Source: Candidatus Lokiarchaeum ossiferum
GTDB taxonomy: Archaea > Asgardarchaeota > Lokiarchaeia > Sigyniarchaeales > Promethearchaeaceae
Direction of reading: 5' to 3'
Length of the DNA: 32,000 nucleotides
NCBI GenBank assembly: GCA_025839675.1
Contig: CP104013.1
Coordinates: forward strand, 1,620,001-1,652,000
A program made the position numbers and the translations under genes. This document shows positions 12 to 16,746 of this stretch, one piece after another (position 1 is the stretch's first letter; every line of letters starts with the position of its first letter). The notes under the pieces are model-generated. The model had not been told where the DNA came from and did no database searches. It worked only from the letters and a program-made list of their open reading frames with translations.

Positions 12-2570
12 CTAGAGAAATAATTTACCATCCGAAAATATCTCGCTAACCTTTACAATATTTTTATCTTTATCATATTTAAACAAAATTAGCAAATCTC
101 CATGCTCTTTATGGGAAAAAATCCCCGATTCAACAGCTCTTTTAATATACCACGGATCTGCTGTAATATTACACTCTGGATAATTGTTGCATCGATAAAA
201 TTCTTTGGTTGAAGTGATAATCTTTTTCATTTCTGTTTCGCATTTGGTGCAATAAACATCTAATTTTCCCCGTGTGGCTTCCCATTTTTTCATGATTTCT
301 AGAATTAGGGCATTAGTTTCTTCTTTCGATTGAGATTTCGAAGATTTTTCCGATTGTCTTTTTATAGGAGGTTCATCTTGCGATTTTTTTATGGGAGAAA
401 TTTCTTGAGAAATGAAGAGATCACACTCAAAAATAGTTTCCATTTGCTGAGAATCAACACCTTTCGGACAATCCATCATATTTTTACACATGAAACACCA
501 AGGAATTCCTGGTTCCATCTCAATCTCTTGCTTTTGTTTTTTTGGTCTTGAAGGAGTTATATCAATATCTTTGGATAGAAGTTCCAAGACATCCAAGTCT
601 TCAAATTCCTCATCAACATCGAGATCTAAACCGGAAATAACTTCAGATACATCATCCCCGCCAATAAATTGTTGTTGTTTTTGTTGATCGTGAGATAATT
701 TTTCAAAATATTTCTCATAAGCATAAAAAAATTCATCTTGATATTTTTGTCGATTGATGCGGTATAGATCTATTTGATTTGTTTTGGTGAGACCATCCGT
801 TTTGTAATAAAGTTGAATAAAGAAATCATCAGAATTAATATCTTGAAACTCAAACTGAGGAGGAAAATTAAGAGGGCGATCAACACACTGATGGAGATCC
901 AAAGATGGAAAAAGAGAAAAACACCATGGACAAAGTTGTTGGATAACAGTTCCGCGCTTTTTAGGCTTTTTTTTAAGTTTCGACTCTATTTTTTCTTGAA
1001 CGAGAGCAAGTTGTTCTTCTTTTTCTTGTTGCAAAATTTGGGCTTCATATCGTTTCGTAATTAGATATTTTAAACTGGGTGGATTTGCTTTATTTAATAA
1101 GTTAAAACATTCTTCGAATAGGGATTTGTATAAAGAACCATTCAATTTGAACACATCAATTTTCCCAGATCGATTCCAAATCCCAATATTCTGATATAAA
1201 TAAACAAAAATCCAATCCGTACACAGATATTTAGGAACATGAAAATCAGTAGGATAGGAATCGGGTAAATTTTTACAGAGATGTTTACTCAGATCGTTAT
1301 ATTGGGAAATACAGAACGGACATACTTGTTTTACATTTTTTCGGTTAATATAGAGTTTTTCATAAAAATTGAGTTTTTCTTGAACTTTTATGTCAAATTG
1401 ATTATCGGGAAGAGAAAATTCGGCAGTATCTAGATATGTTTCTTCTGAATCTGAATGAGACGCGGGAATTTGTTTAGGGAAAAAGATTCTTGTATAATAT
1501 TTCAGAAAAATTTGGAGATAAAGAGTCCGGTTCAATAAATATATATCAAATTGGCCAGAAGAGTCAATTGCATCCAATAAAGAAAATGATACGGCACAAA
1601 ACATCTGATTTGCCACCAAATCTGATGAAAATTCAAAGTTATAAGGTTTAAACTTACACGAATGGTCCCGGAAATCAGTTATTTGATGCATACAAAAAGG
1701 ACAAAGCAAAATCAAACCCAATGTCTCATTATTGAGAGATGCAAGTTCATATTTGTGAGAAAATTGATCCCAATCGGGGAATTCTCTTATAGAAGATAAC
1801 TTGGATGGAATTTTTGATGAATCAGATCTATCAGTATCCCTTTTTGCTTTTAAACGTTGCTGAGCAATCAACCGAATCAAAATACCTTCGGCATTTATAT
1901 AAACGTCGGAGTTTGCACCATTTAGGGCAGACAGAATTGCAGTACAATATTCAGTATATTTCTTTCTATTTAATTTAGATTTGAGTAAAAAGCCCCTATC
2001 ATCCCACCCTTCGGTTTCCTGGTATAGATGTTTGTAAAAAGCATCATCTCCGAGAAATTTTCGAAAATTCGATCCTAAAGGTGATTTTTTGCACTTGTGG
2101 AAGTCTAAACGAATAAATTCATCGAAACAGTAGGGGCAAACTTTGGGAATTTTTGATGATGTGTAAGACTTTTTAATAATTTTGGGAGCAGGATGGCGAA
2201 TTGAAGCCTCAAATTGAACAATGGCTTCTTGATCAGAAAAAGCTTTATCATCCCATATCTGATCAATTGATAATTCGAGGTTATTCGATAATCTCAAATA
2301 CATTTTAATAAAAAAACGTTGATATTTTTTTCGATCTAATTTTGTTCCATCAATGTAATGAGTTTTTGAGTTAAAAATCCCTAATTTTTGATATAGTCTA
2401 AGATAATGGACAGAAGAATGCATTTTTTTATTTCTAAATGAAAAATTCATGGGAGCAATTTGACAACGATGGCGAAAAATTTGTTTAAACTTACGATAAC
2501 AAAAAGGACAAATTTGACGTACTTCTACTGGATCATTCATTGATTGCGCGGGGGATTTTATTTTCTTCAT
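12..2570 (-). CDS. Large multi-zinc-finger protein with five tandem CPxC-x9-HxC modules and a C-terminal topoisomerase-type C4 zinc finger; function unknown
   Basis: The ORF has 853 codons, with ATG at 2568-2570 and TAG at 12-14. Five modules of about 125-145 aa each open with C-P-[FYW]-C-x9-H-x-C (first Cys at aa 21, 145, 290, 417, 547). Each is followed by P-x-N-F and a [FY]xxLYQxxG...L[ND]RxxY segment. An acidic linker spans aa ~637-665. The C-terminal YCTKCE...FYRCNNYPEC (aa 774-800) has the spacing C-x2-C-x16-C-x5-C. Confidence 0.85.
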   Translation of the reverse strand: MKKIKSPAQSMNDPVEVRQICPFCYRKFKQIFRHRCQIAPMNFSFRNKKMHSSVHYLRLYQKLGIFNSKTHYIDGTKLDRKKYQRFFIKMYLRLSNNLELSIDQIWDDKAFSDQEAIVQFEASIRHPAPKIIKKSYTSSKIPKVCPYCFDEFIRLDFHKCKKSPLGSNFRKFLGDDAFYKHLYQETEGWDDRGFLLKSKLNRKKYTEYCTAILSALNGANSDVYINAEGILIRLIAQQRLKAKRDTDRSDSSKIPSKLSSIREFPDWDQFSHKYELASLNNETLGLILLCPFCMHQITDFRDHSCKFKPYNFEFSSDLVANQMFCAVSFSLLDAIDSSGQFDIYLLNRTLYLQIFLKYYTRIFFPKQIPASHSDSEETYLDTAEFSLPDNQFDIKVQEKLNFYEKLYINRKNVKQVCPFCISQYNDLSKHLCKNLPDSYPTDFHVPKYLCTDWIFVYLYQNIGIWNRSGKIDVFKLNGSLYKSLFEECFNLLNKANPPSLKYLITKRYEAQILQQEKEEQLALVQEKIESKLKKKPKKRGTVIQQLCPWCFSLFPSLDLHQCVDRPLNFPPQFEFQDINSDDFFIQLYYKTDGLTKTNQIDLYRINRQKYQDEFFYAYEKYFEKLSHDQQKQQQFIGGDDVSEVISGLDLDVDEEFEDLDVLELLSKDIDITPSRPKKQKQEIEMEPGIPWCFMCKNMMDCPKGVDSQQMETIFECDLFISQEISPIKKSQDEPPIKRQSEKSSKSQSKEETNALILEIMKKWEATRGKLDVYCTKCETEMKKIITSTKEFYRCNNYPECNITADPWYIKRAVESGIFSHKEHGDLLILFKYDKDKNIVKVSEIFSDGKLFL

Positions 2571-2711
2571 CTCCTGTAACTTGACAAAACAATAACTTGA
2601 TTAATTTTGATGGATGGTTCCAAAATAGGATGAAAAATCAAAATTAGAATCAAAGAAAAAAAAATCTTTGAACCTAAATTTTTAATCATTGGAAAAAATA
2701 ATAGAAATATT

Positions 2712-3161
2712 GTGGAGAAATGGACAGAAAAAATTCAACTATATCAAAACATTGTTGAAACGACACAAATTCATGGACCGATTTCAAAACTGATTGGGAT
2801 GAAATTTGTTCATGTTGAAAAAGGGAAAACGAAATTTGAACTAACTCCTAACGAAAATCATTACAATCGAGGTGGATCCGTTCAAGGCGGAGTATTATGT
2901 ACTATGGCGGATGCTTCCATGGGATTTGCTTTTGGCTCAACAGTAGATATTGATCAAGAATTCACAACCATTGAAATGAAAATCAATTTCATTCGACCAG
3001 TATTCATTAATCAAACATTACTTGCAATTGGTAAAGTTGTTCATAGAGGAAAAAGAACTGGTGTAGGAGAAAGCACGATTTATTTTAAAAAAGAATTCGA
3101 ATTAACTGGAGACGCAGCCAAACCGGTAGCTAAGGCTTCGTGTAGTTTGATAATTCTTTAA
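2712..3161 (+). CDS. PaaI-family hotdog-fold acyl-CoA thioesterase
   Basis: The ORF is 149 aa with a GTG start at 2712. The segment GGSVQGGVLCTMADASMGFAF and the overall length match the PaaI/4HBT hotdog thioesterase pattern. Confidence 0.8.
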   Translation: MEKWTEKIQLYQNIVETTQIHGPISKLIGMKFVHVEKGKTKFELTPNENHYNRGGSVQGGVLCTMADASMGFAFGSTVDIDQEFTTIEMKINFIRPVFINQTLLAIGKVVHRGKRTGVGESTIYFKKEFELTGDAAKPVAKASCSLIIL

Positions 3162-5258: not shown

Positions 5259-6770
5259 TCAATAATCGGCAGGAGAAATTCCAAAAGTATCATCCAAATC
5301 TGAAACTAATCCGTCTTTGGCATCAATTATTGTTGGGCTTTGACCTGGAACCAATCGAACGATTTTTGGCAGGTAATTTGCTGATTCGGCAGAAGGGTGA
5401 GACTTAATATTTGAGGCAGAAAAAATCGTGCAACAGAGATCATTTGTAAAATCAAACCTTATACCCGTTTTAAGATATTCATTCGATCGAACCATGTAAT
5501 GACATTTGTTCGCTTGTAAAAAATGATTAAAAGCTTCTTGAGAAAAGCCAGATGATTCATCCATAGATGATAACGTTTCAGGTTTTGATGTATAAATTCT
5601 TTGAAGATCAATACCCAATTCGTTAAATTTTATCTTTCCAAGGGGTAATAGTGAATCCATCTCATTTAAAATAAAAGGTTTATTTGGATTTGTTGAATTG
5701 ATCGGGATTCCAGTGTTTTGGGCAAGAATGTTGATTTGCCCTTGATTCATTGAAGCGATATGAAAATAAGGCATTCGTGAAAGAACGTGCATAATCAGAC
5801 GATAAATTTGCTGAAATTTAGGGGGTGTTAACGATTCACTAGTTATTTGTAACGAGAGGGGAGAAATCATTTCATGAAAATCTTTTGCACCTCGCAAAAG
5901 TACCACATTTTCTGGATATTTCAGAGTAAATAAACTAAGTAGAGCAAACATTTCAATCCCAGAGTGATCATCATTGAAATAATTACCTAAGAATATAATC
6001 TTCACAGCGGGGAAATTTTCAATGATTGGGATGAAATAGTTGCATAAATTCTGTAGTTGCTGGAAATCCCCACAAATATCTCCAACATAATACACATAAT
6101 TCACAGGCTCGCGAATAAGGGGAACTTTACTTTCTTCTAGATGAAAAATCATCGAAGAAAAAAGATGAATATAATCATTGGAATTTAAAGGTATTTCATC
6201 AAAATAGCAGAGCTTCAGAGAAAGAAGATATTGATTGATGATCTGATTTGTTAGAGAGGGGGATAAAGTTGCGAAATCTAAGGAAAAATCGAAATTAGAA
6301 AATATTTCTGCAAAGGGATCCAGAGATGAGACATCTTCTGTTGATGATTTCACATTGGAATTGGGCGCATTATGTAAAGCAATTTCTTCAATTTGTTCAC
6401 CAATTAATTTGTCTGAAGGCAGTGGAGAAACATTGCTAATCACTTCGGCATCCTCAAAGGCATTTTTTTGCATCACTAATTGGGCAGGCATCCCATCCCA
6501 ACGTTTTCGGATTGTCAGTAACCCATCACACTGATATTGATTCAAGCATTCACAAATACCTTCATGAACAGCCATCCTAACAACTCGTTTTGGCCAATAT
6601 TCTAAACATTTTGGACAATGGATTAAAAATCTCTTTTCTGCCTTAAAGAAGATCTTATTATTACAATGGGAACACTGATAGTGTTTTATATCGCTAGATG
6701 TGGATAAATGAAGAGTTTTACACGATGAACATTCGAAAAAATGGATCTTTTCTGGATTGCTATCAGACAA
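5259..6770 (-). CDS. Zinc-ribbon protein fused to a degenerate PPP-type (calcineurin-like) Ser/Thr phosphatase fold
   Basis: The ORF is 503 aa. It starts at TTG 6768-6770, preceded by GGAG 8 nt upstream on the coding strand. The N-terminus has CSSC-x15-CSHC and CPKC...CEC ribbons. The C-terminal half aligns by eye to PP1/PP2A motifs (LKYPENVVLLRG), but GDxHG is GDICG, GDxVDRG is GNYFNDD and GNHE is GAKDFHE. Confidence 0.8.
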   Translation of the reverse strand: MSDSNPEKIHFFECSSCKTLHLSTSSDIKHYQCSHCNNKIFFKAEKRFLIHCPKCLEYWPKRVVRMAVHEGICECLNQYQCDGLLTIRKRWDGMPAQLVMQKNAFEDAEVISNVSPLPSDKLIGEQIEEIALHNAPNSNVKSSTEDVSSLDPFAEIFSNFDFSLDFATLSPSLTNQIINQYLLSLKLCYFDEIPLNSNDYIHLFSSMIFHLEESKVPLIREPVNYVYYVGDICGDFQQLQNLCNYFIPIIENFPAVKIIFLGNYFNDDHSGIEMFALLSLFTLKYPENVVLLRGAKDFHEMISPLSLQITSESLTPPKFQQIYRLIMHVLSRMPYFHIASMNQGQINILAQNTGIPINSTNPNKPFILNEMDSLLPLGKIKFNELGIDLQRIYTSKPETLSSMDESSGFSQEAFNHFLQANKCHYMVRSNEYLKTGIRFDFTNDLCCTIFSASNIKSHPSAESANYLPKIVRLVPGQSPTIIDAKDGLVSDLDDTFGISPADY

Positions 6771-10908: not shown

Positions 10909-12780
10909 ATGGAAAACCAAATTCGTTCTTTATCTAAAGCAATTGTTGCTAAATCGCACAAGGCAAAAATTATCGAATGGTTTGATCTCCATGTAGATGA
11001 AACAGGTAAGAAATTTGGTTTTAATTTTGATTTATGTAATCTGAATTTGAATAATAAAGACAATGAAAAATCAATTAACGATAATCGATTAATTGTGGGA
11101 ATAGATTGGAAAATGAGTTCAGAGGATTTTGTCAAAAATCTTGGAAAAATATTTTCAATTTGCGTCAATCAACGATCTTTAGACTCAAAAACAACTTTGG
11201 GACAAGAATTTACACCGATGGACACAGTTTCATCTATTTTCAATGGAATTGTAGATTTGAAAAACATTTGTGAAACCACAAATATCCTTGATTTTGCTTG
11301 TGGAACAGGAAATTTTATCGGATGGTGCCTTAGATATCAATTAGAAGCGTTTTTCAAAGATCAAAATGAAAAAAGAACACAAAATATGACTAAAAATTTC
11401 AATAACAGATTAGAAACATTATCCCATCACTTGATTGCGGTGGATATTGATCCCCTGTCTTGTTTTACTACGGCGATATATACATCTTTAATAATTTTAC
11501 ATTTCATTCTACGATTTAATTTAACATTTGATAAAAAAATACAAAAAATGTGTTTTCCAGTTTGGATTATTCATGAGAATTTCTTCGATTTTGGAATGAA
11601 ATATCCGACAATCTCTCCAGAGATTATTTTAGGCAACCCACCCTATTTATTTTCACGAAATCTTCCTGTTGATACACTTAAATTTTTGAAATCGAGAAAA
11701 TTTCAATCCGCACGTGGACAATTTGATCTTTCAGATGTGTTTTTGGAACACTCTATGAATTTATTGCAATCTGGGGGAATTTTAGGGGTGATTATTCCAG
11801 AAACAATAACCATTTTAGAAAATCGACAGAAAATCAGAAAATATCTCATTAAAAATTCGGATGTCCTAAAAATTCAACATGTTTCAGGTACTTTCACAAA
11901 TATTTCTGTTGAAAATATTCTTTTGTTTGCTCAAAAAAGTCAAAAGATACATAATGAGATGCTGACGATTTCTTGGGAAAATTTCCAATCTCAAATTATC
12001 AAAAGAAGCGATTTGCTTGAAAAAACACATTTTCCGCTAATATATTCCACCAATATTACTAAAGAAATCATTGCATGGGTTGAAAAGAATTTCATCTCAA
12101 TAGATGAATGGAATGAAATACATCCGGAAGTTGCAATTAAAGTGTTTAGAGGGGTGGAACTCTCAAAAAAGGGAGAAATCATGCAATGCCCAAAATGTGA
12201 TAAATGGATGCCCTATTCCCAAAAAAGAAAGACATGTTCCCATTGCAATTCAGAATTAAATAGAAATGGAAAAATTAAGAAAATAATCAAGAAAATGGAG
12301 AAACTTGGCGAGGCAGAAAAATTTCGCCCTTTCATTCCGCATTTTACTACTAATCAACCTTGCGTTATACCAAGTGCAAGAATTGAACTTGGATATTCCG
12401 GGATCAAATACAAAAAACTGCATGATTTTTGCCCGCAACGCATATTAGTTCGACAATTACTTGCAAAAAAACGGTTATGCGCAACTACTGTGAATGACCA
12501 TTCTCTCACTTCCCAAAGTATTTACAATATTATCTTACCCCAACCATTGCAAGCAGATATTCAGAAACTTCGTAATATTTTGGCATCTGATTTGATATCC
12601 TATTATAATTATACCACATTCAGTAAGGGAAAACGGCTTTTTTCTCGAATTCTTTTACAAAAACTCAAAAATCTTCCGTGGATCCCACGCAACCAAAAAT
12701 ACTCTATTATAAACCAACTCCCAAACCATTTCATCCCTGAAATTACCACACGACTTGGGGAAAAAGATACCTTAATATAA
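10909..12780 (+). CDS. N6-adenine DNA methyltransferase (gamma-class, Eco57I/TaqI-like) with an internal zinc ribbon
   Basis: GQEFTPMDTV is motif X-like. LDFACGTGNF is motif I (aa 127-136, nt 11287-11316). AVDIDP is motif II. ILGNPPYL is motif IV (NPPY at nt 11635-11646). CPKCDKW...CSHCNSEL is a zinc ribbon, followed by a target-recognition-like C-terminus. Confidence 0.85.
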   Translation: MENQIRSLSKAIVAKSHKAKIIEWFDLHVDETGKKFGFNFDLCNLNLNNKDNEKSINDNRLIVGIDWKMSSEDFVKNLGKIFSICVNQRSLDSKTTLGQEFTPMDTVSSIFNGIVDLKNICETTNILDFACGTGNFIGWCLRYQLEAFFKDQNEKRTQNMTKNFNNRLETLSHHLIAVDIDPLSCFTTAIYTSLIILHFILRFNLTFDKKIQKMCFPVWIIHENFFDFGMKYPTISPEIILGNPPYLFSRNLPVDTLKFLKSRKFQSARGQFDLSDVFLEHSMNLLQSGGILGVIIPETITILENRQKIRKYLIKNSDVLKIQHVSGTFTNISVENILLFAQKSQKIHNEMLTISWENFQSQIIKRSDLLEKTHFPLIYSTNITKEIIAWVEKNFISIDEWNEIHPEVAIKVFRGVELSKKGEIMQCPKCDKWMPYSQKRKTCSHCNSELNRNGKIKKIIKKMEKLGEAEKFRPFIPHFTTNQPCVIPSARIELGYSGIKYKKLHDFCPQRILVRQLLAKKRLCATTVNDHSLTSQSIYNIILPQPLQADIQKLRNILASDLISYYNYTTFSKGKRLFSRILLQKLKNLPWIPRNQKYSIINQLPNHFIPEITTRLGEKDTLI

Positions 12781-14526: not shown

Positions 14527-15498
14527 ATGCTATTTGTGGGCGATGAATTGAAGCGACAAAATTCAAAAGCAAAAACTTCCACCGAACCAACTCTATTCAA
14601 ACCCATTTTTCTTCCTAAAGAAGAACCAAAAGAAACACTGATCATCGAGGGACGAGGAAAATATTCAATCCGGAATAGTCTCAACAATCTTACGGGGACA
14701 GAATGGATTAAATTCACACGCTCATGGTTTGAGCACCATCCCCCACCACGAAATAAAAAACAACAAGAACATCTCCACCCCGCTAAATTTCCCGAAGATT
14801 TAATCGGAAAATTTATCCAGTACTTTACCAAAGAAGGAATGTGGGTATTGGATCCTTTCTTAGGCACGGGATCAACTTTAGTTGCTTGCGATGCGACACG
14901 TCGAAATGGAATTGGAACGGAATTAACGGAAAAATGGGCAAATATCGCAGCTAATCGTACCCAACAGTATGTGATCCAAGGAGATTGTCGAGAACTAAAA
15001 AATTATGCGCTTCCCCCCCTCGATTTTTGCATCTCTAGCCCTCCCTATTGGGATATGCTTCACCACTCCCGCGGTGGTTCTGCAAGTACCCAAAAAGCAC
15101 GGATCAGGGAAGGGTTTGATGCTACTTTTTCGGATGATGAGCGAGACATGGGGAATGTGGAAGATTATGATGATTTCATTGAGATGTTGCTTCAGCTATA
15201 CAAAGAAATTTTTGATTTAATGCGTCCTGGGGCTTATTGTGCAGTTGTGATGCAAAATTTACTAAAAAAAAATCAGGAATTTTATCCGATTGCGTGGGAA
15301 TTCGCTTTAAAGATGCGAAACTTTGGGTGGCAATTATGTCAAGAATTTTTGTGGTGCCAACGAGATAAAAAACTAGGTATCTGGGGCTATCCCAACACAT
15401 ACATTTCCAATGTCCATCACCATTATTTTTTGATTTTTCGAAAGCCACTGCCTAAAAAGAAAAAAAAAAGTCGACGAAAGAAAGAAAATAATAATTAG
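14527..15498 (+). CDS. N4/N6 amino-DNA methyltransferase (PF01555-like sequence blocks in permuted order)
   Basis: HPAKFP lies at aa 84-89. VLDPFLGTGST is motif I (nt 14851-14877). IGTELTEKWANIAANR follows it. Then comes CISSPPYW, motif IV (SPPY at nt 15037-15048), followed by YDDFIEMLLQLYKEIFDLMRPGAYCAVVM. The C-terminal tail is basic (KKKKKSRRKKENNN). Confidence 0.8.
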   Translation: MLFVGDELKRQNSKAKTSTEPTLFKPIFLPKEEPKETLIIEGRGKYSIRNSLNNLTGTEWIKFTRSWFEHHPPPRNKKQQEHLHPAKFPEDLIGKFIQYFTKEGMWVLDPFLGTGSTLVACDATRRNGIGTELTEKWANIAANRTQQYVIQGDCRELKNYALPPLDFCISSPPYWDMLHHSRGGSASTQKARIREGFDATFSDDERDMGNVEDYDDFIEMLLQLYKEIFDLMRPGAYCAVVMQNLLKKNQEFYPIAWEFALKMRNFGWQLCQEFLWCQRDKKLGIWGYPNTYISNVHHHYFLIFRKPLPKKKKKSRRKKENNN

Positions 15499-16116: not shown

Positions 16117-16287
16117 CGTGTTGTTATTCCGGTTTCTGCCTTGTTTCACATGCAAACGAATTAAATATAATATCTTTTTGCGGCAACTATGAAAAAAAAG
16201 ACAATTTACCGCGAAAAAATTATGGACAATTTGTGAAAAATTAAAAAATCGTTGAAGCTTTTAAAGATTACTAGGAGATTTTTAAAA

Positions 16288-16746
16288 ATGGTTAAAGAAG
16301 TAATGCAAGCAGAGCTCGAAGAGCTTATCAAATGCAAAAAAATAGTAATTGTTGATTTTTCAGCAACTTGGTGTGGCCCTTGCAAGTCTATTGCAAAAGT
16401 ATTGGAATCAAAAGTGACCCCCCAATTAGAAAATGATGACGATGTCGCTCTTGTTAAACTTGATATCGACAAAAATAAAGAACTGGCCACAGCCCTTCAA
16501 GTTATGTCTGTTCCTACGATGATGTTCTTCTTCTGCGGTCAACGCATCGTATTTCAAGGTGAAAATGGAAAACAAGAAGATCGTATTGTTGGTTTTGATC
16601 CTAATATTGATAAAATGATTTTAGGATTAGTCGACCAATTGAAAAAAACACCCGAACCTGCTGCTGGTGGATGCGGATGTGGTTGTACCGGTTGTGGCAC
16701 TGAAGGTGGCCATGATAGCGATCCCGATAAAGGCTGTGGATGCTAG
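16288..16746 (+). CDS. Thioredoxin with a Cys-Gly-rich C-terminal tail
   Basis: The active site is WCGPC, and VPT (cis-Pro region) and FxxG elements are present. I prefer ATG 16288, which has AGGAG at 16274-16278, over the track TTG at 16252. The tail GGCGCGCTGCGTEGGHDSDPDKGCGC is encoded at 16666-16743. Confidence 0.9.
   Translation: MVKEVMQAELEELIKCKKIVIVDFSATWCGPCKSIAKVLESKVTPQLENDDDVALVKLDIDKNKELATALQVMSVPTMMFFFCGQRIVFQGENGKQEDRIVGFDPNIDKMILGLVDQLKKTPEPAAGGCGCGCTGCGTEGGHDSDPDKGCGC

Follow-up and report, generated by a model that had tools for sequence, protein, structure and literature searches.

The window analysed here is a 32,000-nt stretch of the Candidatus Lokiarchaeum ossiferum genome (assembly GCA_025839675.1, contig CP104013.1, positions 1,620,001 to 1,652,000), and the gene at its left end, read from the minus strand, encodes a conserved, selected, multi-metal, beads-on-a-string protein that belongs to a small family. 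We found that this orphan resolves into three conserved new elements attached to a recognisable topoisomerase-type ribbon: an 85-aa module that joins a C2HC knuckle to a helical part and is present five times, a C4 cluster repeat, and a C-terminal domain with a tail. By sequence and model comparison, the module, the cluster repeat and the C-terminal domain appear to be new, as none of them belongs to the curated families searched and Foldseek found no counterpart to the predicted fold of the module. Proteins that join an array of tandem zinc modules to a nucleic-acid-binding ribbon are, as a general kind, known already. With less than even confidence, we propose that the protein is a putative adaptor that attaches to nucleic acid and displays a series of dissimilar binding modules.

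The reading frame is open over all 852 aa on the minus strand, as initially annotated. The protein contains 27 cysteines (Cys), all 23 motif Cys/His ligands of its knuckles, cluster and ribbon are intact, and its predicted metal sites number seven: the five C2HC knuckles, the C4 cluster and the C4 ribbon. Coordinates of all features are collected in Table 1.

Five tandem copies of a zinc module

The strict pattern CP[FYW]C.{9}H.C matches the protein exactly five times, with the first Cys at aa 21, 145, 290, 417 and 547 and the motif codons starting at nt 2510, 2138, 1703, 1322 and 932, just as the initial annotation had listed them. Not one of 20,000 shuffled versions of the protein (0/20,000) contained even a single match.

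The initial annotation had further claimed that the entire unit is repeated and not the knuckle alone, and three lines of evidence bear this out over ~85 aa. When the five modules (~90 aa each) were compared pairwise by BLASTP, E-values fell between 3e-5 and 3e-14. A hidden Markov model (HMM) of the modules of other proteins, from which the window protein and its 65% identical orthologue had been excluded, recognised five domains with independent E-values (i-E) between 1.2e-24 and 1.3e-17 (Table 1), while 200 shuffled control proteins reached at most 10.5 bits. Aligned over their full length, the five modules have the elements P-x-N-F-x-F, FFxxLYQ and KLNRxKY in common; the downstream elements first noticed by eye, P-x-N-F-x-F and LYQ...KLNRxKY, are conserved columns in an alignment of 45 modules, and the H-x-C ending is present in 45 of the 45 copies. 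Module 3 is indeed the most degenerate, scoring 50 bits versus ~70 for the others.

Identity among the modules of the window protein is only 22–34% at the protein level, and the linkers between them are 35–55 aa long. Positional orthologues can be recognised: module 1 corresponds to the first modules of two relatives (P0003_m1 and P0008_m1), and module 2 to the second module of one of them (P0003_m2). A module resembles its positional counterparts in other proteins more closely than it does the other modules of its own protein; the array is therefore old and its units individually constrained, and it was not recently amplified. The net charge of the modules runs from +16 in module 1 to −4 in module 5. 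Judged from their sequences, the modules are old and non-equivalent, each position having its own orthologues and its own charge.

The module fold and its relation to known zinc fingers

We modelled module 5 with AlphaFold2 from the 45-module alignment (predicted local distance difference test, pLDDT, 86.4; predicted template modelling score, pTM, 0.76). In the model a beta-hairpin forms the knuckle, the H-x-C loop is extended, and a short helix (41–50), a small hairpin and a long helix (67–88) make up the rest. The conserved columns are mostly ligands and aromatic core residues, and a conserved polar patch, D61-x2-K64-L-N66-R67-x-K69-Y70, lies where the long helix starts. The five modules are predicted to be structurally alike, each with a beta-hairpin knuckle packed on a two-helix subdomain.

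The initial annotation could place the module in no known family and would have abandoned its novelty on a profile match to a characterised one. Pfam (in a copy that lacks PF28519) and NCBIfam yielded no match even at E ≤ 10, and the precomputed Pfam record of the identical protein is empty. Among PDB sequences the best matches were insignificant C2H2 fingers (E 0.9–2), and a Foldseek search with the module model gave no significant match, the best E-values being 2.3 in the PDB, to a ZAD domain, and 3.1 in BFVD. The module thus lies outside the curated families searched. The ZAD domain (PDB 6FP5) also has a long C-terminal helix after a zinc knuckle, but its ligands are four Cys arranged as a treble clef; with 29 aligned columns and a TM of 0.15 the match lacks significance, and we rejected this identity.

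Other zinc fingers differ from the module in spacing, fold or both. Like classical C2H2 arrays (PF00096), the protein strings several zinc-stabilised units along one chain, with a copy number that varies among paralogues (2–7 here). The classical spacing, however, is C-x2-4-C-x12-H-x3-5-H, whereas the modules have x9 and H-x-C; the beta-beta-alpha helix is absent from the module model, which has no helix between knuckle and His; and classical units of 28 aa with 7-aa linkers contrast with modules of ~85 aa and linkers of 35–55 aa. Membership of PF00096 was not detected at E ≤ 10. UBZ4-type fingers (zf-C2HC_2, PF13913) follow C-x2-C-x(≥9)-H-x3-C, and a helix carries their last two ligands. Their spacing, H-x3-C against H-x-C, does differ as the initial annotation had noted, and PF13913 matched neither the window protein nor the isolated knuckles. 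The retroviral CCHC knuckle (PF00098, C-x2-C-x4-H-x4-C) also differs in spacing and gave no profile match.

The closest likenesses are confined to the knuckle. The finger of C17orf80/MTNAP1 has the form C-x2-C-x9-H-x3-C (PMC10445727); this family (PF28519) has C-P-x-C-x3-[FY]-x2-L-x2-H in common with the modules, with nine residues from the second Cys to the His, but ends in H-x3-C where the modules end in H-x-C (PMC10445727). In gastropods, tandem CPTCGKxFKQLSxHKCK fingers of a Littorina CARD protein and a Batillaria protein have the very spacing C-x2-C-x9-H-x-C, and a Haliotis Mab-21 protein carries a close variant ending in H-x2-C. Aligned to the module profile with hhalign, the gastropod fingers reached a probability of 96% over 25 columns. 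The likeness of both the gastropod and the MTNAP1 fingers is confined to ~25 residues and lacks the ~60-aa helical extension, and convergence is possible for so short a Cys/His motif. Because these fingers have the x9 spacing in common with the module, its knuckle can be counted among the short CCHC fingers, a loosely known class; what appears to be new is the helical extension and, with it, the module as a whole. The claim that the module is unprecedented consequently stands for the whole unit with its helical extension and falls for the knuckle alone.

Two observations concern this finger class itself. The gastropod proteins (P0013, P0018, P0020, P0021, P0022 and P0026, from Haliotis, Littorina and Batillaria) have their fingers fused to Mab-21 (cGAS-like) or CARD, and Pfam covers the fingers only partly, by the first half of zf-C2HC_2; they look like an unclassified animal zinc finger in innate-immunity-type proteins. 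Two further loci (L009:4310-6654 and L010:3893-6297) encode small archaeal-type proteins with knuckles of the form CPxCGxxFxxLxxH(x1-4)C, each with a faint precomputed match to PF28519 MTNAP1_ZnF and each directly downstream of a JAB/MPN protein of ~530 aa, a context that may tie the finger class to a ubiquitin-like system.

The acidic linker, the Cys cluster and the C-terminal region

The acidic linker described initially is present at aa 631–690, with an isoelectric point (pI) of 4.1. It contains a conserved acidic motif that aligns in 8 of 10 family members and for which a short helix is predicted with low confidence. Its consensus does not fit an LC3-interacting region/Atg8-interacting motif (LIR/AIM) or a motif of the MIT-interacting (MIM) type.

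The WCFMC...C cluster seen initially does exist (aa 692–716), and its description can be refined: it is a third conserved repeat type, C-x2-C-x5-CP-x13-C, with the family form PLCFSCxNMxNCPRGxDSxxMExxFxC. The pattern C-x2-C-x5-C-x14-C holds in 19 of 19 copies. These copies matched nothing in Pfam, including Fer4 and SPASM, and nothing among PDB sequences, and the spacing is neither CxxCxxCxxxCP nor CX2CX5CX3C. AlphaFold confidence for the cluster is low (pLDDT ~45).

The C-x2-C-x16-C-x5-C ribbon with its NYPEC signature lies where the initial annotation had placed it, and its assignment to the topoisomerase type holds up. Its ligands (C774-x2-C777-x16-C794-x5-C800) are invariant in 11 family members, and PF01396 matched the C-termini of 11 of 11 members at E ≤ 0.01 (best 2.6e-8), with an E-value of 3.8e-5 for the full window protein. 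In Top1 ribbons, aromatic residues three positions before and three after the third Cys stack on bases of single-stranded DNA (F616 and Y622 in Escherichia coli Top1; PMC9369019, PMC4678816). The window protein has F791 three before and Y797 three after its third Cys, and both positions are F/Y across the family; in the HMMER alignment the family's F/Y residues stand opposite F616 and Y728 of EcTOP1. The ribbon was modelled as three strands (pLDDT ~90). It resembles the Top1 ribbons (PF01396, Zn_ribbon_Top1/Topo_C_ZnRpt; E. coli Top1 D5–D7, PDB 4RUL) in its C-x2-C ... C-x5-C ligands, its flanking aromatics and its predicted three-stranded form. Unlike Top1, however, the window protein has a single ribbon and no tandem array, lacks a topoisomerase core, and continues into a family-specific alpha+beta domain and a conserved tail that have no fold match.

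Foldseek returned no significant match for the ribbon or the alpha+beta domain. Near the top of the list for the C-terminal fragment, E. coli Top1 (4rul_A, probability 0.57, E 0.23) was the one name with a functional meaning; likenesses to RelE-type toxins, PUR-alpha and PCNA were rejected (E > 0.2, short alignments or high root-mean-square deviation). The tail has the family consensus S[ED]GKLFL, which does not fit an HbYX-like motif.

A small family with a narrow distribution

We searched the module profile exhaustively with HMMER against 1.84 billion cluster representatives (E ≤ 1e-3) and retrieved only 25 proteins. About 13 of these are true relatives (P0002–P0012 and the fragments P0015 and P0016). 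Three bacterial repeat proteins (P0014, P0017 and P0019) matched profile positions 33–79 only, in 4–14 stretches, and were rejected as summed low-complexity or repeat matches; in the rest, the match is limited to the knuckle of ~25 residues. Named sources of the relatives are L. ossiferum and a 'Promethearchaeota archaeon' metagenome-assembled genome (MAG), the others coming from Logan, ENA and JGI assemblies. The suspected lineage specificity is thus borne out, as all relatives with source names are Lokiarchaeum or Promethearchaeota. When GTDB genomes, JGI metagenome contigs and IMG/VR were scanned for C-terminal patterns, only unconfirmed pattern matches and no confirmed relatives came up, so the phyletic spread rests on the exhaustive representative search and the source names. 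The scan of GTDB species representatives missed even the source gene, and its absences are not a biological result. Our literature search found no description of this zinc-module family.

Complete members have their parts in the same order: 2–7 modules, an acidic linker with DMDLLELLSRDIDI, 1–3 Cys clusters, a helix, the C4 ribbon, the alpha+beta domain of ~45 aa and the tail. This architecture is common to at least 10 proteins from independent assemblies. Examined as the initial annotation had suggested, the family therefore combines a copy number of 2–7 modules per member with a narrow, Lokiarchaeum-type spread.

L. ossiferum itself has at least three paralogues with 15 modules in total. Two further members lie side by side at another locus: P0006 (NEF87_000691), with 3 modules and 2 clusters, and immediately downstream a protein of 1273 aa that has 7 modules and 3 clusters. 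A second organism has this tandem pair too (P0010 and P0003), and a third locus has the short form only, without the 7-module member. In these three loci (L003:235-9095, on an L. ossiferum-type contig; L002:687-10009; and L005:261-4927) the downstream gene order is conserved: a coiled-coil protein of ~335 aa with a MarR-like winged helix-turn-helix (wHTH), a protein of ~148 aa, and an HdrD/TfrB-like 2x[4Fe-4S] protein. The 7-module protein P0003 (L002) has a ~90-aa E/R/K-rich stretch between modules 3 and 4 (aa ~455–545), which looks like a single alpha-helix spacer and fits a rigid spacing of modules. Contigs L003, L004 and L005, from three sequencing runs, all end 235–261 bp upstream of the short paralogue; these common ends suggest a repeat or variable sequence just upstream that breaks assemblies.

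Purifying selection and loss in a relative

Compared with its 65% identical orthologue P0002, the window gene has a ratio of nonsynonymous to synonymous substitution rates (dN/dS) of ~0.11 overall and 0.055 in the C-terminus, with synonymous sites near saturation. Constraint is graded along the protein: amino-acid identity is 91% in the C-terminal ~100 aa, the most constrained part, 86% in the Cys cluster, 82% in module 5 (the best conserved module), 56–68% in the other modules and 40–62% (mostly 40–50%) in the linkers. A dN/dS of ~0.11 together with graded constraint indicates a functional gene and not an artefact.

In the MAG GCA_029935835.1 (L007:7690-8447, JAPOGW010003698.1), the syntenic orthologue is a pseudogene. 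Its neighbourhood is the same (Eco57I-type methylase, DUF4139/4140, HAD, radical SAM, 4HBT). An internal deletion of ~2.1 kb (window nt ~2458 to ~331), with CAA(A)TCG microhomology at the junction, joins knuckle 1 to the pre-ribbon helix; two further lesions interrupt the reading frame, an in-frame TAA within knuckle 1 and a stop that cuts the C-terminal domain short. What remains has been annotated as an open reading frame (ORF) of 72 aa. A second contig with the same pseudogene (L008) is 100% identical to L007, and the two therefore represent one source.

A putative adaptor and its alternatives

In the adaptor that we tentatively favour, the Top1-type ribbon would anchor the protein on single-stranded or locally unwound nucleic acid through F791 and Y797. 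The five differentiated modules, spaced by charged or flexible linkers, would serve as separate docking surfaces for different partners, each module keeping the conserved polar patch D-x2-K-L-N-R-x-K-Y where its long helix begins. Module 1, which is very basic, may touch nucleic acid as well, and the acidic LLELL motif and the conserved GKLFL tail would probably act as short docking peptides.

Several results weigh against this proposal. The window protein's scores with PF01396 (23.8 bits for the full protein and 27.6 bits for its 100-aa fragment) are under the Pfam gathering threshold (GA 32), and the Foldseek match of the C-terminal fragment to Top1 is not significant. Clearly basic modules make up only 16 of 45 and module 5 is acidic, the mean net charge over the 45 modules being +1.8; because charge is so heterogeneous, uniform reading of nucleic acid by every module is not favoured. 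The multivalent scaffold or reader suggested in the initial annotation is still an inference. The neighbours of the window gene (thioesterase, radical SAM and HAD genes) have no link to nucleic acid, and the family has no homologue of known function. The pseudogene in GCA_029935835.1 shows that the gene is dispensable in at least one relative. Finally, the C-terminal ribbons of Top1 also bind the beta' subunit of RNA polymerase (PMC4678816), and the ribbon is therefore no proof of DNA binding.

This last point also favours a pure protein–protein scaffold, in which the ribbon, C-terminal domain and tail would dock on a protein, such as RNA polymerase or a partner of the cytoskeletal or coiled-coil type, while the modules recruit others and no nucleic acid is involved. 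We regard such a scaffold as somewhat unlikely. It would accord with module charges that span acidic to basic, with the conserved linear motifs (acidic LLELL and coil tail) and with the coiled-coil and wHTH protein that adjoins the paralogues in three loci. However, the family conserves the two aromatic ribbon positions that stack on bases (PMC9369019), the basic charge of module 1 is extreme, and the analysis brought up no partner.

The loss described above raises the question of whether the gene is a lineage-specific duplicate that evolves fast, can be dispensed with, has no conserved molecular role and is heading to loss. The three lesions of the GCA_029935835.1 orthologue, the tiny size of the family and the fast divergence of the linkers would all be expected of such a gene. 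Strong purifying selection against the 65% identical orthologue, the intact set of motif ligands and the conservation of module positions across paralogues of ~30–45% identity nevertheless make this decay quite improbable.

A role in redox or metal handling, with the Cys cluster binding Fe-S or the many Cys sites buffering or sensing metal or redox state, strikes us as very improbable. The 27 Cys, the four invariant Cys and the CP dipeptide of the cluster, which are reminiscent of ferredoxin motifs, the HdrD/TfrB-like protein at the end of the paralogue loci (followed in one of them by a peroxiredoxin) and a thioredoxin gene in the window (16252..16746) could be read in its favour. The cluster, however, has neither the ferredoxin nor the SPASM spacing and no Fer4 or SPASM match in any of its 19 copies, and the Fe-S gene is two genes away in the paralogue loci and absent from the locus of the window paralogue. 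Knuckles with a His ligand are typically structural Zn sites, which also counts against a redox role.

A gene fusion or assembly artefact, with separate genes merged or repeats collapsed, has next to no probability: repeat-rich genes are prone to misassembly in principle but no specific support was found, the identical 852-aa protein occurs both in a genome record of 6.03 Mb and on an independent contig from Logan, homologues revealed no such artefact of the kind the initial annotation had warned of (P0002 has the same five modules in the same order, and at least 10 relatives have the architecture), and the modules are too divergent from each other to collapse.

Asgard genomes are rich in unannotated lineage-specific genes, few of which have a defined domain structure. 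Here, curators gain a new domain family to define, and the cultivated L. ossiferum system gains a testable candidate for a nucleic-acid-associated adaptor. Archaea rarely have tandem zinc-module arrays of variable copy number, which typify eukaryotes, and the family is therefore a small but clean example of a eukaryote-like architecture that arose within an Asgard lineage. That the family is so narrowly distributed and that one relative has lost the gene both count against a core role in the cell; no open question has yet been tied to the family. A bolder reading, which we consider improbable, is that the module is a genuinely new zinc-stabilised fold from the Lokiarchaeum lineage and that the arrays are modular readers, each positional module having its own nucleic-acid or peptide element. 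If true, poly-zinc-finger recognition would have been invented independently in archaea, among the prokaryotes closely related to eukaryotes, and the C-x2-C-x9-H-x-C knuckle would possibly be linked in evolution to the same-spaced fingers of animal innate-immunity proteins.

Table 1. Features of the zinc-module gene and the adjoining intergenic region, in window coordinates
Feature	Position	Strand	Remarks
Complete ORF, 852 aa + stop	12..2570	-	Identical to hypothetical protein NEF87_001320, Ca. Lokiarchaeum ossiferum
Module 1, aa 15-104: knuckle CPFCYRKFKQIFRHRC + helical part	2259..2528	-	i-E 1.2e-24; net charge +16, pI ~10.5
Module 2, aa 139-228: CPYCFDEFIRLDFHKC + helical part	1887..2156	-	i-E 1.3e-23
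Module 3, aa 284-373: CPFCMHQITDFRDHSC + helical part	1452..1721	-	i-E 1.3e-17, 50 bits; most divergent
Module 4, aa 411-500: CPFCISQYNDLSKHLC + helical part	1071..1340	-	i-E 3.9e-24
Module 5, aa 541-630: CPWCFSLFPSLDLHQC + helical part	681..950	-	i-E 1.5e-24; acidic, pI 4.7
Conserved acidic motif DVDEEFEDLDVLELLSKDIDI in acidic linker	558..620	-	Family consensus DMDLLELLSRDIDI; aligned in 8/10 family members
Cys cluster CFMCKNMMDCPKGVDSQQMETIFEC, C-x2-C-x5-CP-x13-C	423..497	-	Presumed metal site; four invariant Cys; 1-3 copies in relatives
Conserved helix NALILEIMKKWEATRGKL leading into ribbon	261..314	-	H101-118 of modelled fragment
Top1-type C4 ribbon CTKC-x16-C-NNYPE-C, aa 774-800	171..251	-	PF01396 match; F791, Y797
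C-terminal alpha+beta domain, aa 801-845	36..170	-	Helix + three-stranded sheet; pLDDT 83-92
C-terminal tail SDGKLFL	15..35	-	Predicted coil; S, G, K, F invariant, L nearly so
Divergent AT-rich intergenic region, 141 bp, between zinc-protein gene and 4HBT thioesterase gene (2712..3161 +)	2571..2711	.	Presumed promoter region, role inferred

Neighbouring genes in the window

The window paralogue is transcribed divergently from the 4HBT thioesterase gene, a synteny common to P0002 that gives no functional hint. We considered the Cys cluster as a peptide modified by the neighbouring radical SAM protein and rejected this idea: the divergent thioesterase gene intervenes, and the paralogue loci have no radical SAM gene.

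A 503-aa ORF (window 5259-6770, minus strand) has several N-terminal CxxC pairs and, by eye, degenerate metallophosphatase-like motifs (GDICGD, GNYFNDDHSG); it has no match in Pfam or NCBIfam, and L007 has a syntenic counterpart of 493 aa. Also kept in synteny in L007 is an Eco57I/TaqI_C-type fused restriction-modification methylase (10909-12780, plus strand), and a separate N6/N4 DNA methylase lies at 14527-15498 (plus strand). Both methylase genes are 8–12 kb from the zinc-protein gene and have no apparent link to it. The window also encodes Roadblock/LC7, a JAB protein and TFB, which fits an Asgard genome.

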